Shown here: piece by piece, positions 4,587-37,217 of the stretch
Position numbering within the stretch: the first letter of the stretch is position 1
Layout: each line of letters opens with the position of its first letter
Assembly (NCBI GenBank): GCA_963674695.2
Contig: CAXXGI010000001.1
Span: 832,001-896,000 of the forward strand
Source: a bacterium
Lineage (GTDB): Bacteria; UBA10199; 2-02-FULL-44-16; JAAZCA01
Direction of reading: 5' to 3'
Length of the DNA: 64,000 nt
The notes under the pieces: generated by a model
Told to the model about the DNA's origin: nothing
Seen by the model: only the letters and a program-made list of their open reading frames with translations
The model's database searches: none
Made by a program: the position numbers and the translations under genes

Positions 4587-4659
4587 GGGCAGGTAGCTCA
4601 GTCGGTAGAGCAGGAGACTGAAAATCTCCGTGTCGGGGGTTCAATTCCCTCCCTGCCCA
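4587..4659 (+). tRNA. tRNA-Phe (GAA), CCA not encoded
   Basis: Cloverleaf with GGGCAGG/CCTGCCC acceptor, AGCTCAGTCGGTAGAGC D-arm, CTGAAAA anticodon loop, TTCAATT T-loop. Confidence 0.97.
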
Positions 4660-4660
4660 C

Positions 4661-4694
4661 AAAAGCGGAACCCCATCGGGTTTCGCTTTTTTTT
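4661..4694 (+). terminator. Intrinsic terminator of tRNA-Phe
   Basis: GCGGAACCC-CATC-GGGTTTCGC hairpin followed by a long T run. Confidence 0.85.
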
Positions 4695-4768: not shown

Positions 4769-4840
4769 AAAAAAAGAGGAGGCACGCACGACATGCTCTC
4801 CCAAGATGTGACCGGTTTTTGTCCCCTTTCCCCATTCACT
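4769..4840 (-). ncRNA. Candidate small RNA A (about 70 nt)
   Basis: sigma28-like promoter 4845-4871 immediately upstream; ends in GGAGAGCATGT/GCGTGCCTCC hairpin plus T7; no credible ORF. Confidence 0.5.
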
Positions 4841-4844
4841 TCTA

Positions 4845-4871
4845 GTATCGGCAGAAATGGAAAAAAGTTGC
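4845..4871 (-). promoter_or_regulatory. sigma28/FliA-like promoter
   Basis: GCAA-15nt(CTTT...)-GCCGATAC; same motif at four other sites. Confidence 0.65.
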
Positions 4872-4893
4872 GTGGTATCTGGGGGATGCAATT

Positions 4894-4922
4894 AAAAAAA
4901 TCCCCTGTAAAAACAGGGGATT
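4894..4922 (-). terminator. Intrinsic terminator of the 5653-4951 operon
   Basis: AATCCCCTG-TTTTTA-CAGGGGATT followed by T run on the minus strand. Confidence 0.85.
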
Positions 4923-4950
4923 GTGTAAGTCATTTTCTTGTCGATCCGGG

Positions 4951-5265
4951 TTACTGGATCAGGTTGAATTTCTCGGCCATCTTGAGGATCGTCACCGCCG
5001 CGTTCTCTTCGATGAGATCGTTGTACGGCGTGGCGTCGATGTGCGCCCAGAAGTCCGCGTCATCCAGGCCCTCGATGTCGAAATCAACCGTGCGGTAGGC
5101 GATGTTGCCGTTGGCCTCGCGCGTGCACTGGTTGGTGAAGAGGTTCTGGTCGCGGTCGAGGAGCCGGCGAAACTTCGGATGGCTCACGATCGGCGCGTTG
5201 CGCTCGATCAGGAGCTCGATGAGCTGAACCACATCCTCGCGTGTCCACTTCGTCTTTCGTGCCAT
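4951..5265 (-). CDS. Hypothetical protein (104 aa)
   Basis: ATG at 5265 with AAGGGGGA RBS, host-like codon usage, terminator downstream. Confidence 0.75.
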   Translation of the reverse strand: MARKTKWTREDVVQLIELLIERNAPIVSHPKFRRLLDRDQNLFTNQCTREANGNIAYRTVDFDIEGLDDADFWAHIDATPYNDLIEENAAVTILKMAEKFNLIQ

Positions 5266-5275
5266 TGAGTCCCCC

Positions 5276-5653
5276 TTATCCCATTGCTTCGACGATAACC
5301 TGCTTGGCCAGATGCCCTTCGAGATCGGTCGGATGTTCGACGGAGAGCAGGTCGGCCATGGCCAACACATGCGGTGCAAACGTCGCCTTCTTCTCCCGCA
5401 CCTGGGAGGTCGTCGGCATATCGCGAAAAAGGCCCACATTGATCGCATGGCTCTTGCCAAACTTTCCGGCGAATTCCGCTACGGTATTGTCGACATCAAA
5501 ATTGGAACCCACGAGCACGGAAGCAATCTTCTCGGATTTCACGCCCTTGAAGAGGGCCTTGGCCGCCTTCTCGGAATCGGTGGTCTTTGCCAAGACCGCC
5601 TTTTTTGCCGCCGCCGGAGTCATCGTCGTATTCGCTGCCGCTGGTCTCACCAT
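5276..5653 (-). CDS. Hypothetical protein (125 aa)
   Basis: AAGGAGG RBS; sigma54 promoter just upstream; 10 nt from the next gene. Confidence 0.75.
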   Translation of the reverse strand: MVRPAAANTTMTPAAAKKAVLAKTTDSEKAAKALFKGVKSEKIASVLVGSNFDVDNTVAEFAGKFGKSHAINVGLFRDMPTTSQVREKKATFAPHVLAMADLLSVEHPTDLEGHLAKQVIVEAMG

Positions 5654-5688
5654 CGTTACCCTCCTTGTGTCTTCCTGCCCGTCATTAG

Positions 5689-5705
5689 TGCAAGAGCCCT
5701 GCCAA
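5689..5705 (-). promoter_or_regulatory. sigma54 (-24/-12) promoter
   Basis: TTGGCAGGGCTCTTGCA (GG-N10-GC); IHF-like site TAACTATTCGTAT at 5718-5730. Confidence 0.75.
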
Positions 5706-5860
5706 ATCGGGTTTCTGTAACTATTCGTATTTATTGGATATTAACAGCACCCTCCCTTCGCATTCGGGGCGGGATGACCCCCAAACCGCCATTTCCGGGG
5801 ATTTCACTCCCCATCCGCCGACATCATTATATGGGGACAAGTGTCGGATAAGGCAACGCA

Positions 5861-5990
5861 GGCAGTTCGGAAATCGGGAGGCGCCCGGCTATTGCGCCGC
5901 GAGGGGGAAAACGAGGACTTTTTTACAGCCTCATCGGAAAAAAGGTCTCGTTTTCCCCCGGGAGGCGCCACAGCATTTGCGCCGCGAGCC
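5861..5990. repeat. Hairpin repeat family, copy 1
   Basis: GGCAGTTC...TGCGCCGCGA-stem-TACAGCCTCATCGG-stem-GGGAGGCGC; homologous to 28056-28143. Confidence 0.75.
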
Positions 5991-6029
5991 AGCGGTTTAC
6001 AATTCCGAAGAAAACGGGATATTTGCCAG

Positions 6030-6626
6030 ATGGCCTTCAATCGCAAAGATCACTTCTACCAGCGCGCCAAGCGGGAGAAAAAGGCTTCGCGCGCGGTCTA
6101 TAAGATTGAGGAGATGCAGCGCCGCTTCCGCCTCGTCGCAAAGGGGGATTGCGTCCTGGATCTGGGCTGCGCCCCGGGCGGCTGGCTGCAGGAGCTCTCG
6201 CCGCTCGTGGGCCCCAAGGGAAAGGTGATCGGCATCGACCTGTTGCCGCTCAAGATCGCGCCGCCGAAACACTGCACGGTCCTTCTCGGCGACCTGACCG
6301 ACGCCGCGATGCAGGAGGAGATCGCCACGCTCGCCGGGGGAGATGTGGATTGCGTCTGCTCCGACATGTCGCCCAACCTCTCGGGCATTCCGTTCGCCGA
6401 CGCCTACCGCTCCTTCGAAATCGCCAGCCTCGCCCTCGATGTCTGTCATCGCCTGCTCAAGAGTGGCGGCCACTTCGTCGTGAAGATCTTTCCCGGCGAA
6501 GAGTTCGAGGGATTCATGCGCACGCTCAAGACCGAATTCAATCGCGTGCAAACCATCGTCCCCGAAGCCACCCGCAAGACCTCATCGGAGCGCTACATCG
6601 TTGCGCTGGGATACCGGAGAGACTGA
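6030..6626 (+). CDS. rlmE: 23S rRNA Um2552 2'-O-methyltransferase
   Basis: SRAVYK, LDLGCAPGGW, SDMSP, VKIF, SSERY (K-D-K-E tetrad). Confidence 0.95.
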   Translation: MAFNRKDHFYQRAKREKKASRAVYKIEEMQRRFRLVAKGDCVLDLGCAPGGWLQELSPLVGPKGKVIGIDLLPLKIAPPKHCTVLLGDLTDAAMQEEIATLAGGDVDCVCSDMSPNLSGIPFADAYRSFEIASLALDVCHRLLKSGGHFVVKIFPGEEFEGFMRTLKTEFNRVQTIVPEATRKTSSERYIVALGYRRD

Positions 6627-6799
6627 CATTCGCACCGCATATGAAACCATCTCATCGCCCTGCAATTCGAATCCTTCCCGTCATTGAACCTGAGTGCTCC
6701 GGCCGGTGAAGTTACCCTGTTGTAGCGCTGGCGCTCCGCTTGCACGTTTTGGCATCTGACTCGATCCGTCTTTCCTCATGAACTCATATGGATGCCCAG

Positions 6800-6980
6800 T
6801 GTGTCAATAGGGTGATCGTGCTTAAAGCGATGTTGTCTTCAATGAGCTTCAAGGGCTTTCAACCTCATATCCGCGTGCTGGTTAACGCATTAAGTTGAAT
6901 CCGATTGAAGCCTTTCCACAATCTCACCTCGGATATTGAAATCCATGTTCATGTCGTGGGCTGCTTCATTCCCCGCTTAA
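6800..6980 (-). ncRNA. Bridge/seek RNA of the IS110 element
   Basis: Non-coding 3' end with two internal loops carrying segments that match the target (CATGAAC, GGTGAG) and donor (ATTC, ATATGAG) junctions. Confidence 0.75.
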
Positions 6981-8117
6981 TTAAGCCTCCACAGCTTTAA
7001 GCTCCCTATCAACCCCCCTCAATGATTCCCAAATAAAACACAGCAACTCTCGTCCACATGCAACCTTCACCTTGTTTTTCTCTTTTCCCCGGCACAGCAA
7101 TCTACTCGACTTTTGATGCAACCGCTTCATACATCGATCGGCAATGGCTATGTATCGTTCATCTGTACCTTTTCTCATTTCCTTGAGTCGTTTGCTTACC
7201 CTTGGAATTCGAGCAGATGACTGGCATGCTTCTATCACACCGGTTCGTATATGCCGATTTCCCATCTTGCTCATGCTGAATCGATGCTCTTTTCCTCCTG
7301 AACTATATTCCCTCAAGTCCATGCCCGCATAGGAACAGAGCTTCCGTGGATGTGCAAAACGGGAAATATCTCCTATCTCTGTAATAAGGGTCATGGAGGA
7401 TAACGTGTCTAAGCCTCGATAACACCGCAAGGAATCCACTTTCTTTTTATAAAATGAGCTTTGAGCCAACCGCGCGATCTCCTTTTCATAGCAACCGATC
7501 TCTAGCTCTACCTGCTTTAAATGCATCAATAAGGAGTGAATGTTAAATTGGAAAACCTGGCTTTTATGCTTGGATGTTTGTCTTGATAGCCACTCCCGGT
7601 GCACCGCTGTCCAGTATTCTCGTCCTTTTCCCTCTTCGGTTCGATAATGAATCCCAGCGCAACGACAGGCTGAGAGGATATGCCTCTTGAGCTCCTTTGA
7701 TTGTTCTTTGAGGAACTTCCTGGAACGAACGATGCTTCGGACACATTCTTCCTCAGCATCAGGCACATGCACTATGCTCAGTTCACCGTTTCTGTAATTC
7801 CGCGCGAAGCTTCTACAATCGATCTTGTCTGTTTTTACAAATTTACCGGGCTTCTTTGGAATGAGAGAAGAGGCTATGACGTCGCAATGCCAGCCATGGG
7901 CCGAGAGATCCCGTTGAAGAGAAAATCCCAAATAAGTGCTCTCGTAGCATATTTTCAATTCTCCATTCTCCCCCCTGAGGGCATTTAACTTCTTCACCAA
8001 ATGAGCTACATTGGGCCTGCACGTAAAAGAAAACGTTTTTTCGGAATCGTTCTCTACCGCATGACCATGGAACGCATTATCATCGACATCAATACCAACA
8101 TAGACTATGTTTTTCAT
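6981..8117 (-). CDS. IS110 family transposase/recombinase
   Basis: RuvC-like DEDD (VGIDV, CYE, KTDKID) and C-terminal YSSGG serine domain; GAAGGGGGG RBS. Confidence 0.95.
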   Translation of the reverse strand: MKNIVYVGIDVDDNAFHGHAVENDSEKTFSFTCRPNVAHLVKKLNALRGENGELKICYESTYLGFSLQRDLSAHGWHCDVIASSLIPKKPGKFVKTDKIDCRSFARNYRNGELSIVHVPDAEEECVRSIVRSRKFLKEQSKELKRHILSACRCAGIHYRTEEGKGREYWTAVHREWLSRQTSKHKSQVFQFNIHSLLMHLKQVELEIGCYEKEIARLAQSSFYKKKVDSLRCYRGLDTLSSMTLITEIGDISRFAHPRKLCSYAGMDLREYSSGGKEHRFSMSKMGNRHIRTGVIEACQSSARIPRVSKRLKEMRKGTDERYIAIADRCMKRLHQKSSRLLCRGKEKNKVKVACGRELLCFIWESLRGVDRELKAVEA

Positions 8118-8413
8118 CTGGATGCCCCCCTTCGATGAGTTAAATAATTTCACCCATAGTGAATTATTTATGAGTTAACCAGCGCTCGTTACATCAAGGG
8201 CTGGGCATCCATATATTCTCGCCCGCCGGCGGAATAAGAACACATTAGATTTCTGGCGGGCTCAAACATCATTCGGAATTTCGCCTTCGGCGAAACCGTC
8301 GGCTCTTCGCAGGCCAAAACGGCACGCTCCGCGAGGCACTACAACAGGGTAACTTCACCGGCCGGAGTAGAGTCATCTCTCATGCATACAATCATAGGAA
8401 GTCACAAACATGA

Positions 8414-8561
8414 ATCCATCGTCCGGCAGTGTGTTCGGAGGGGATCTCTTCTTTCATCGCGATCGAAGCTTATGATGATGCGATGAAAGAAGAAAAAGCC
8501 GTCGAGGCGGCGTGTGAGCCGAGACGGCGGTCCCCTCCGAACACACTGCCGGACGATGGAT
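8414..8561. repeat. Long palindromic element (MITE/REP-like)
   Basis: Perfect 31-bp IR 8414-8444/8531-8561 enclosing a perfect 14-bp IR 8447-8460/8480-8493 and a GCCGTC/GACGGC arm. Confidence 0.8.
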
Positions 8562-8641
8562 CAAGACCACGACGCACGCGATGGGATTTTCCGTAGATCT
8601 CCCGGTACACCGCAAGCCGGACCCCTCCCGAAGGAGTACGC

Positions 8642-8792
8642 AAAAAAACCCACGAAGCCGTGAGGCCTCGTGGGCTTATTTGGGGAAAGGAGATGGGGGA
8701 TAAAGGTGGCGAGGGCTATCTCCTTCCCCCGACCCTCGCCAAGTCCTAAAATCACTTTGGTTGACAGGATTCGAGGTTCTAGCCTACCCTCT
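8642..8792 (-). ncRNA. Candidate small RNA B with pseudoknot/switch and terminator
   Basis: sigma28-like promoter 8799-8825; stem 8741-8732/8716-8707 whose loop pairs with 8694-8682; terminator 8674-8642 with T7; G-U pairs favour the minus strand. Confidence 0.55.
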
Positions 8793-8798
8793 GCATCC

Positions 8799-8825
8799 TT
8801 ATCGCGTTCGCGCGGGGAAAGTTGC
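8799..8825 (-). promoter_or_regulatory. sigma28/FliA-like promoter
   Basis: GCAA-15nt(CTTT...)-CGCGATAA. Confidence 0.5.
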
Positions 8826-8835
8826 TCACTTTTTT

Positions 8836-9885
8836 ATGAAAAAAATCGCCAACCTTTTCAAGAAGATAGCCCCCTGGTGCGTGGCCGCCGGGATTTTTGC
8901 CTATCTCTTCCACCTCTATCCGCCGGCCAAGGTCTGGCATGCGCTGACCTATGTGAACCTCCCCGCGTTCATCGCCTTTGCCGCGGCCTACTTCATCTTC
9001 ATCTTCGTCGTCGACAGCATCGTCATGCGTTGGGTCATCACGCACTTCTCGCATCCGGTCTCGCTCATGGATATCCTCACGGGGCGGGGTGCCACCTATC
9101 TCATCATGGTGCTCAACTATCCGGCGAGCCAAGCGGCCTATGCCTATTACCTCAAGCGTCGCTACGGCATCCCGATCTTCGAGGCATTGGGGATCTTCCT
9201 CTTCGTGATCTTCATCGATCTGCTCTGGATCATCTCGCTGGCGTTCGCCGGTTCCTTCTTTCAGGAGTACACCATCGGCGGCATCGACATCGGCCACATT
9301 GCGCGTCTCATCGGGCTGGGTGCCGCGATCTTCACCTTCGTCTGGCTCGCCTTCTGGCGACGCTGGCCCGAACGCGTTTTGGGACGGCACATCCGCATCC
9401 CCTTCATCGAACGCCTGCGCACACGCGGCGTCTTCAGTATCTTCAACAAAGCCACCGCCCCCGATTATCTCAAGGTGGCGATCATGCGCATCCCGATTCA
9501 CTTCACGATCATCATCTCGATGTATATCGTTTTGCACACCTTCAACGTCGACATCCCCTTCGTCAAAATACTGGGGAACATCCCGATCGTCTTCCTCATC
9601 GGCACGCTGCCGATCACGCCGGGGGGACTGGGCACAACCAACGCCGCAACGGTGGAGCTGCTGCATCCGTACATCACGGGAGCGATATTCGGGACGGGAA
9701 AGATCACGCCGCAGGAACTGCTCTTCTCCGCCACACTCCTGTGGATGTTCGCCAACTACAGCATGAAGGGGATCGTCGGAACCTTCTTCCTCAAGCGCGC
9801 CTCGAGCGATCTCTTCAAACCGACCGCGGACGTCCCGGAGGAAGAGGCCGAGGAGGAGGCCGCGCACATCGGGGGAAACATCTAA
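8836..9885 (+). CDS. Lysylphosphatidylglycerol synthase TM-region / flippase-like membrane protein
   Basis: Multiple TM helices, LPITPGGLG motif; TTGACA-18nt-TACCCT at 8761 upstream. Confidence 0.8.
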   Translation: MKKIANLFKKIAPWCVAAGIFAYLFHLYPPAKVWHALTYVNLPAFIAFAAAYFIFIFVVDSIVMRWVITHFSHPVSLMDILTGRGATYLIMVLNYPASQAAYAYYLKRRYGIPIFEALGIFLFVIFIDLLWIISLAFAGSFFQEYTIGGIDIGHIARLIGLGAAIFTFVWLAFWRRWPERVLGRHIRIPFIERLRTRGVFSIFNKATAPDYLKVAIMRIPIHFTIIISMYIVLHTFNVDIPFVKILGNIPIVFLIGTLPITPGGLGTTNAATVELLHPYITGAIFGTGKITPQELLFSATLLWMFANYSMKGIVGTFFLKRASSDLFKPTADVPEEEAEEEAAHIGGNI

Positions 9886-37126: not shown

Positions 37127-37217
37127 GCACTTTTCAGAATTGTCAATACACTGATATTACTGTATAATTTCGACATTCATCAAAGAACTTCCTGCCTTTC
37201 CCAGGGAAAGGGGCCCC

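Follow-up and report, generated by a model that had tools for sequence, protein, structure and literature searches.

Two putative small RNA genes under one sigma28-like promoter class in an uncultured bacterial phylum, one of them the founder of a covarying RNA family

Two short minus-strand loci, named here RNA A and RNA B, lie in a 64,000-nucleotide (nt) stretch of a bacterial genome (assembly GCA_963674695.2, contig CAXXGI010000001.1, positions 832,001 to 896,000); this whole stretch is referred to as the window, and positions without a contig label are given within it. A preliminary description of the sequence had presented the two loci as sigma28-driven small RNAs (sRNAs) complementary to each other, one of them serving as a sponge for the other in a developmental or attack-phase regulon. 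The locus thus raises the question of whether these are genuine RNA genes, and whether their complementarity belongs to the conserved function of the pair. From the analysis of the source genome (G000; 3.03 Mb, contigs C1 to C3) and its relatives (G001 and following), RNA A and RNA B very probably correspond to independent non-coding RNA genes, each with its own promoter and terminator and both of a single promoter class. The reading that we prefer, with a probability of about 0.5, is that two independent sRNAs belong to a sigma28-like, non-flagellar regulon whose functional core is RNA B, a self-masked anti-Shine-Dalgarno riboregulator. The pairing between RNA A and RNA B in G000 would then be a lineage-specific feature or a coincidence, and not a conserved function of the pair.

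The same promoter motif was indeed found at both loci. It has the form GCAAC-N15-[G/C]CGATA[A/C], with CCGATAC as the -10 element of RNA A and GCGATAA as that of RNA B. A strict version of the pattern (CAACTTT-N12-[G/C]CGATA) gave 42 matches in the genome and none in the reversed genome, and a matrix derived from these 42 matches detected 105 sites at 18 bits or more, in comparison with none for the column-reversed matrix. In this genome-wide scan the promoters of RNA A and RNA B scored 36.4 and 29.9 bits, respectively, and they are two of the five sites of the class in the window. Most sites of the class are followed, at short distance, by a purine-rich ribosome-binding site and a start codon. 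At several of them (e.g. C3:765271, C1:949482, C3:139673, and C1:39162) an ATG stands 7-8 nt past the CGATAA hexamer, which points to the existence of leaderless mRNAs in the source organism; the presumed transcription start was therefore placed at that distance.

The assignment of these promoters to sigma28 stood only in part. The -10 consensus of the 42 strict matches, [G/C]CGATAA, is of the sigma28 type (GCCGATAA). Promoters of the sigma28 (FliA/WhiG) class carry TAAA as -35 element, with the full consensus TAAAGTTT. The upstream element observed here, 15 nt ahead of the -10, is instead GCAACTTT, that is, GCAAC(TTT), and corresponds neither to TAAA nor to a TTAAG-N16 arrangement; the pattern TAAA-N15-GCCGATA had no match genome-wide. 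The best sigma candidate protein reached 132.4 bits to TIGR02479 (FliA/WhiG), below the cut-off of 189.6, and this is still the family that it matches best. No match to Flagellin_N was found in the source genome, rated as 100% complete, and 16 of the 19 proteins encoded downstream of the top-scoring promoters had no Pfam family. The promoter class is probably read by the divergent FliA/WhiG-like sigma factor of this genome, in which case it would control the transcription of about 100 units in an organism without flagellin.

The blastn search with the RNA B locus gave matches in 19 of 41 genomes. A covariance model built from 15 sequences (R1), which scores 110 bits at the RNA B locus of G000, found matches in 59 of 93 genomes at E <= 1e-3; at E <= 1e-6 there was one match in each of 44 genomes belonging to 15 of 24 families, as corresponds to a single-copy gene. 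The search at phylum level and the search at class level returned the same 93 genomes, which implies that the phylum has a single class; its members are known from metagenome bins with mixed labels.

The conserved part of RNA B comprises a stem (S1) that encloses a G-rich loop, a long-range helix (S2) between this loop and the C/U-rich tail, and an intrinsic terminator (Table 1). Pair changes were counted in 30 homologues aligned to R1, and the covariation of S2 is not circular, since S1 and the terminator, and not S2, guided the alignment. Pairs altered on both sides amounted to 9 of 10 in S1 (96.9% of its cells being paired), 8 of 12 in S2, and 13 of 13 in the terminator. Paired cells made up 95.6% of those observed, vs 74.9% in shuffles and about 50% in slid controls, and none of 500 shuffles reached any of the five measures applied (cells paired, covariation score, and the three change counts). 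Double changes in S2 were absent (0 of 12) when the comparison was restricted to the 14 closest sequences. Frequent G-U pairs, such as those present in 14 of 30 sequences at one S2 pair, are compatible with the minus strand only and fix it as the strand of RNA B. The z-score of the fold was -3.4. These data indicate that, as far as aligned sequences can tell, RNA B is a new structured sRNA family in which S1, the G-rich:C-rich helix S2, and the terminator are all backed by covariation. A conserved hairpin at the 5' end was also considered and was rejected: the stems fall in differing registers between genomes, and the region coincides with an inferred promoter on the opposite strand.

Within S2, conservation is highest at AAGGAGA of the loop and TCTCCTT of the tail, and the heptamer TCCCCCA, located between S1 and the 3' arm of S2, showed no change in any of the 30 homologues. 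The 3' arm of S2 begins with the last base of this heptamer (A8694), and the other six bases lie outside the covarying helices; the adjoining TCTCCTTTCCCC is paired in S2, so the predicted accessibility of the pyrimidine strand is mixed. The covarying pairing of the C-rich strand to the G-rich loop of the same RNA had been missed in the preliminary description. As for the anti-Shine-Dalgarno-like character attributed to this strand, the tail has the 8-nt CTCCTTTC in common with the 3' end of 16S rRNA (GGATCACCTCCTTTCT), and GGGAAAGGGG precedes an ATG near 37216. In agreement with the earlier view, RNA B has its own promoter and a 14-pair terminator hairpin followed by T7, and encodes no credible protein, since it varies by compensatory base changes and not by codon. 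In 27 of 30 loci the next gene is rlmE, which runs convergently up to the RNA B terminator; RNA B thus does not occupy a leader position, and a riboswitch or leader was ruled out.

A search of the window and both loci against Rfam 15, at gathering and at permissive thresholds, gave tRNA-Phe as the only passing match. The best scores under threshold were 21.3 bits for RNA B (cut-off 70) and 25.8 bits for RNA A (cut-off 47). Novelty means here that Rfam 15 has no match; the literature search was directed to analogues and not to the phylum, so no claim is made that the family is unpublished. A pattern representing the RNA B core retrieved 15 stretches from 185,579 species genomes; six were true loci, all of them in relatives already counted, and the other nine were chance matches in unrelated contigs. 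This collection may omit close relatives, and its outcome says little on the distribution of RNA B.

Table 1. Positions of the RNA A and RNA B elements and of neighbouring features in the window
Feature	Position	Strand	Details
RNA B promoter	8799..8825	-	GCAAC 8825-8821, 15 nt, GCGATAA 8805-8799; same place in 15/15 aligned relatives
RNA B transcript (putative), about 150 nt	8642..8792	-	predicted start 7-8 nt after CGATAA; end in T7 run
RNA B stem S1 enclosing the G-rich loop	8707..8741	-	5' arm 8741-8733, 3' arm 8715-8707
Shine-Dalgarno-like G-rich loop GGGGGAAGGAGAT, 5' arm of S2	8718..8730	-	pairs with 8694-8682; contains AAGGAGA
Invariant TCCCCCA, candidate seed/toehold	8694..8700	-	follows S1; last base shared with the 3' arm of S2
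C/U-rich 3' arm of S2, ATCTCCTTTCCCC	8682..8694	-	all but A8694 inside the tract 8693-8681
RNA B tract TCTCCTTTCCCCA	8693-8681	-	read from the sequence
RNA B intrinsic terminator hairpin, 14 pairs	8646..8677	-	T7 at 8648-8642
Putative sigma70-type promoter of the divergent membrane-protein gene	8761..8790	+	TTGACA 8761-8766, 18 nt, TACCCT 8785-8790
Membrane-protein gene, LPG_synthase_TM domain	8836..9885	+	PF03706, E = 9.4e-18
IS110-type insertion and palindromic repeat	6697..8561	.	transposase 8153-6981 (-); PF01548 (DEDD_Tnp_IS110), PF02371 (Transposase_20)
P0001 gene, 104-amino-acid protein	4951..5265	-	upstream of RNA A; own terminator 4922-4899
RNA A promoter	4845..4871	-	GCAAC 4871-4867, 15 nt, CCGATAC 4851-4845
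RNA A transcript (putative), about 70 nt	4769..4838	-	predicted start
RNA A G-rich tract TGGGGAAAGGGGA	4822..4834	-	mostly unpaired by prediction
RNA A terminator hairpin, about 4802-4777	4777..4802	-	then T7 at 4775-4769
tRNA-Phe 4587-4660 and its terminator 4661-4690	4587..4690	+	convergent; positional anchor for RNA A

RNA A was also confirmed as a locus with a promoter of the class and a hairpin plus T7, but its conservation is of another kind. The blastn search with RNA A in relatives recovers the promoter only, and its homologues were located by position within the conserved neighbourhood: the membrane-protein gene, divergent from RNA B; RNA B and rlmE, facing each other; small protein genes in the direction of the two RNAs; and RNA A, facing tRNA-Phe. 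The small protein P0001 was found in 17 of 21 genomes from several families of the phylum, always between RNA B and RNA A. At 12 of the 17 loci examined, P0001 was followed by a site of the promoter class, a stretch of 45-85 nt ending in a hairpin and a T-run, and a convergent tRNA-Phe; G002, G006, G011, and G017 lack this arrangement at the P0001 locus, and the contig of G014 ends before it. Among more distant genomes, anchored on tRNA-Phe, six of ten had a promoter-like site (with a -10 that is often CCGAGAA) and a short, hairpin-ended predicted transcript. RNA A was in this way recognized by position in 18 genomes (12 + 6); the sequence comparison was carried out on 16 sequences, with the G026 stretch masked.

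These 16 sequences share little: RNA A of the closer genomes begins with (G/T)TGGATGG, and 12 of the 16 carry GGGGGA, always within or abutting the 5' arm of the hairpin. Only 12 of 404 predicted G000 terminators carry GGGGG in the 5' arm, so this motif does not reflect generic terminator composition. The fold of RNA A was no better than that of shuffled sequences (z = -0.67). As had been proposed, no credible protein is encoded: the overlapping open reading frames (ORFs) run through the terminator and the tRNA, and no ORF is common to the 16 homologues. RNA A is conserved mainly by position and evolves fast. A longer form, ending at the tRNA-Phe terminator at about 4661, is possible.

Other observations concern this end of the locus. 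Between RNA A and tRNA-Phe, 20-40 nt past the hairpin, five genomes of two families (G001, G005, G010, G012, and G015) carry TTGAGAAAGGAGGGTTAGGG followed by a pyrimidine-rich partner, an element that may be part of a longer RNA A isoform; in G000 the region at about 4755-4715 holds a degenerate version of it at best. In G063 and G064 (family f11) a site of the promoter class lies so close to tRNA-Phe that an RNA A would not fit; it points into the 3' end of the tRNA gene and would yield an antisense tRNA-Phe transcript. Searches of Pfam and NCBIfam gave no family for P0001 or for its 125-amino-acid neighbour (both in the window at 4951-5653, minus strand), and the AlphaFold2 model of P0001, based on a 15-sequence alignment, was too poor for a fold search (mean predicted local distance difference test score, pLDDT, of 56; predicted template modelling score, pTM, of 0.32).

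The complementarity between the two RNAs was reproduced as first noted: the tracts at 4834-4822 and 8693-8681 form 13 contiguous pairs with one G-U. Eleven of the 13 bases of the RNA A tract lie in a predicted loop, and the first two pair in the enclosing stem. The duplex of RNA A with the RNA B tail (-29.2 kcal/mol) ranked first among those of 102 5' regions behind the same promoter, and of 3000 random 77-nt windows only 0.13% reached 13 pairs and 0.43% reached the RNA A duplex energy. Against this, about 95 binned sites in the genome offer at least 13 contiguous pairs with the RNA B tail when G-U is allowed. Shuffle controls that take self-folding into account gave a split result: the net binding in G000 was -13.0 kcal/mol, vs -5.9 ± 2.6 kcal/mol for 120 dinucleotide shuffles (p = 0.017), but RNA A outperformed shuffled RNA A in only two of 16 genomes (G000 and G010), with p > 0.5 in 12 of them. 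In most genomes net binding is poor because the G-run is buried in the hairpin of RNA A itself, and 14 of the 15 RNA A sequences from other genomes do not carry the G000 tract. An accessible G-rich region complementary to the C-rich region was thus found in G000 only, and the pairing is not kept across the species that have both RNAs.

The G-rich part of a six-copy non-coding repeat of G000 (C1:731044, C2:469365, C2:710832, C2:905098, C3:151958, and C3:272619) also pairs with the RNA B tail, over at least 14 positions. The repeat consists of two hairpins, CCCCTCCTT-TGTA-AGGAGGGG and then ATGGGGGAGGTAGATC...GATCTACCCC. As it carries GGGGATGGGGGAGG, it was weighed as a possible start-codon target of RNA B, and discarded because its copies share no ORF.

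In our preferred reading, RNA B would be a trans-acting riboregulator that works independently of Hfq; no Hfq gene was found in the source genome, which led us to reject Hfq dependence, and no CsrA was found in it either. The C-rich tail would base-pair with mRNAs at their purine-rich ribosome-binding regions. Since part of this tail is predicted to be masked by the G-rich loop of the same RNA through S2, entry would take place at the invariant, open TCCCCCA and would require S2 to be displaced by the target. RNA B is, on these grounds, probably a self-masked anti-Shine-Dalgarno riboregulator. RNA A would be a fast-evolving companion sRNA, whose free G-rich tract in G000 could titrate RNA B.

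Several considerations weigh against this reading. S1 and the full 12-bp S2, with connectors of 2-3 nt, would be hard to fit in one classical pseudoknot, and this geometry suggests that the two helices either share a strained pseudoknot or belong to alternative folds. Some of the sequence conservation seen in the 5' third of RNA B may be due to the opposite-strand promoter instead of the RNA. The seed and masking roles proposed for RNA B are deduced from conservation, and the public runs that hold this stretch are three DNA-type runs from one study, with no RNA run listed. The remaining points concern the pairing with RNA A. In G013, a different tract of 10-11 nt (TTTAGGAAAG) stands opposite the changed RNA B tail of that genome (CTTTCCTAAA), so both partners differ from those of G000 in a compensating manner. 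GGGGGA of RNA A is the exact complement of TCCCCC in the invariant heptamer of RNA B, and RNA A tops the 102 candidate partners in G000. When only the duplex was scored, 18 of 18 RNA A homologues surpassed the random-window median of their own genomes (p < 0.35), with p <= 0.05 in seven of the 18 (5 of 12 closer and 2 of 6 distant genomes), and 5 of 11 surpassed dinucleotide shuffles at p < 0.05; these duplex-only tests ignore the folding of each RNA, and, the genomes being related, the 18 tests cannot be taken as independent.

It is on these last observations that the best surviving alternative draws, namely the sponge or anti-sRNA pair of the preliminary description, in which the G-rich sequences of RNA A would titrate or destabilise RNA B through its C-rich tail. 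The pairing site would drift between lineages: G000 and G013 would use the 5' tract, and the other genomes the hairpin arm with GGGGGA. In addition to the pairing energies, the two RNA genes lie within 1.5-5 kb of each other in at least 12 genomes. On the other hand, pairing beyond a core of 6-7 nt is inconsistent between genomes, the G-run is locked in the terminator stem of RNA A in most of them, and the tail is already paired inside RNA B; the poor net binding in most genomes, the loss of the G000 tract, and the many genomic sites with pairing of the same length also speak against a conserved interaction. The part of the claim that stands is the favourable pairing in G000, which is plausible and unsupported by conservation, whereas a conserved sponge relationship is unlikely.

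The sponge could also be part of a broader arrangement, in which RNA B, rlmE, the two small proteins, RNA A, and tRNA-Phe would form one phylum-specific post-transcriptional module within the non-flagellar sigma28-like programme. RNA B would be gated by a toehold, with TCCCCCA as the toehold and S2 as a lid that only true partners would open; RNA A, rich in G, would act as an antagonist that co-evolves with RNA B and whose pairing site shifts between lineages; and the 104-amino-acid protein might stand in for the missing Hfq as RNA partner. Taken jointly, these proposals have only a small chance of being right.

A further alternative is that RNA B acts locally, either by competition between its promoter and that of the divergent membrane-protein gene or through end-to-end antisense action on the adjacent genes. 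CTGTCAA and TAGG, conserved on the RNA B strand, read on the opposite strand as TTGACA-N17/18-TAnnnT, which would be the sigma70-type promoter of the membrane-protein gene. This promoter lies in the 5' part of the RNA B gene and was recognized from the alignment, being unlisted in a simple promoter scan. In the window, at 8761-8805, the sigma70-type and sigma28-like promoters overlap back-to-back, with their -10 elements less than 20 nt apart, and the polymerases could exclude each other there. The proximity of the two -10 elements and the neighbours themselves favour a local role: in 23 of 30 loci RNA B has the membrane-protein gene beside it in divergent orientation, and rlmE keeps its convergent end in most loci. 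Yet promoter competition needs neither the covarying S1 and S2 nor an invariant unpaired heptamer, the promoter concerned is itself a prediction, and RNA B is retained in the seven of 30 loci where no membrane-protein gene was found beside it. Moreover, RNA B is intact in G000 even though an insertion sequence (IS) and a palindromic repeat part it from rlmE by 2 kb, an arrangement found in this genome only. Altogether, a purely local role seems improbable.

The elements inserted between RNA B and rlmE have relatives elsewhere in the genome. The IS110-type element at 6697-8367 is bounded by 32-nt inverted repeats (6697-6728 and 8336-8367), and a further copy, 98% identical, is located at C3:391855-393292. 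The palindromic element at 8414-8561, roughly 150 bp long and placed between the RNA B terminator and the IS, has perfect outer arms of 31 nt and inner arms of 14 nt. Similar sequences occur at no fewer than 30 other places of the genome, and the element looks like a member of a family related to miniature inverted-repeat transposable elements or repetitive extragenic palindromic sequences.

RNA B could also be a decoy directed to the ribosome or to a protein, binding the 30S subunit or a factor that recognises the Shine-Dalgarno:anti-Shine-Dalgarno duplex; the AAGGAGA loop would mimic a Shine-Dalgarno sequence, or S2 would mimic that duplex. The conservation peak at AAGGAGA and TCTCCTT is consistent with this idea, as are the 8 nt in common with the 3' end of 16S rRNA and the fact that RNA B is linked across the phylum to rlmE, a gene of ribosome maturation. 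One version of it, a CsrB/RsmZ-type CsrA sponge, was excluded, as the genome gave no CsrA match and RNA B has just one GGA-bearing loop. The sequence fits a decoy and a masked seed alike, and we regard the decoy as rather improbable. The weakest alternative, that RNA A encodes a tiny peptide as an mRNA with a very short leader, the start codon being supplied by the conserved GGATGG of its 5' end, can draw on an ATG 9-10 nt past the promoter hexamer in 10 of 16 RNA A sequences and on the leaderless ATGs that the same promoter class yields at other genes, but it is highly improbable, given that the frames run from 6 to 32 codons without common sequence, read through the terminator hairpin, and have no ATG in the distant homologues G030, G025, and G062.

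Returning to the self-masked riboregulator that we favour, both RNA genes are probably real, and RNA B represents a new family of a known kind of sRNA: single-copy, well-covarying, outside Rfam 15, and spread over a large part of the families of an uncultured phylum. Its design is unusual, with a Shine-Dalgarno-like loop paired to an anti-Shine-Dalgarno-like tail beside an invariant open heptamer, and points to a translational regulator that would mask itself, in organisms lacking both Hfq and CsrA. The large class of promoters with a sigma28-type -10, in a bacterium without flagella and mostly in front of proteins of unknown family, is of interest as a parallel to FliA in Bdellovibrio. The pairing between RNA A and RNA B, if true, would extend stand-alone sRNA sponges past the few known cases; it is at present a lead and not a result.

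Among known systems, the cyanobacterial Yfr1 comes to mind for the architecture of RNA B. Yfr1 is described as having an ultraconserved, unpaired C/U-rich motif between two stem-loops and as sequestering ribosome-binding sites (PMC2796815). The succession in RNA B of a stem-loop, an invariant single-stranded pyrimidine-rich motif, and a terminator stem-loop resembles this plan. The two RNAs have no sequence or Rfam relation, and RNA B is about twice as long. Most of the RNA B pyrimidine tract is paired, with covariation, to an internal G-rich loop, a trait that the available text on Yfr1 does not describe (PMC2796815).

In Firmicutes, RoxS/RsaE sRNAs are reported to use C-rich regions as seeds against purine-rich ribosome-binding sites (PMC8216469; PMC6158497), without a known RNA hub protein such as Hfq (PMC8216469). 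RosA and RsaI are stand-alone G-rich sRNAs that neutralise such C-rich sRNAs (PMC8216469; PMC6158497), and the RosA-RoxS pairing was established by crosslinking and genetics (PMC8216469). The tail of RNA B resembles the seed chemistry described for RoxS/RsaE, and the RosA/RsaI model corresponds to the sponge first proposed for RNA A and RNA B. The systems differ in phylum and have no homology, as judged by the lack of an Rfam match, and RNA A and RNA B are putative partners predicted from their sequences. In contrast with the RoxS/RosA case, the sponge-like sequence that covaries with the C-rich tract is located inside RNA B itself, and the pairing between RNA A and RNA B, self-folding counted, is favourable in just two of 16 genomes.

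As for the promoter class, the nearest counterpart is the attack-phase programme of Bdellovibrio bacteriovorus, whose FliA-type consensus is given as TTAAG-N16-CCGATA; three attack-phase sRNAs carry the motif, and these promoters drive a large, mostly non-flagellar, and uncharacterised set of genes (PMC3627812). The promoters described here have GCAAC(TTT)-N15 in place of TTAAG-N16, there is no flagellin, the sigma candidate scores under the FliA/WhiG cut-off, and the source organism belongs to another, uncultured phylum. By analogy only, the class resembles the Bdellovibrio attack-phase case in its CCGATA -10 element, in the fixed spacer to an upstream element, and in the mostly uncharacterised genes, together with some sRNAs, that would be under its control.

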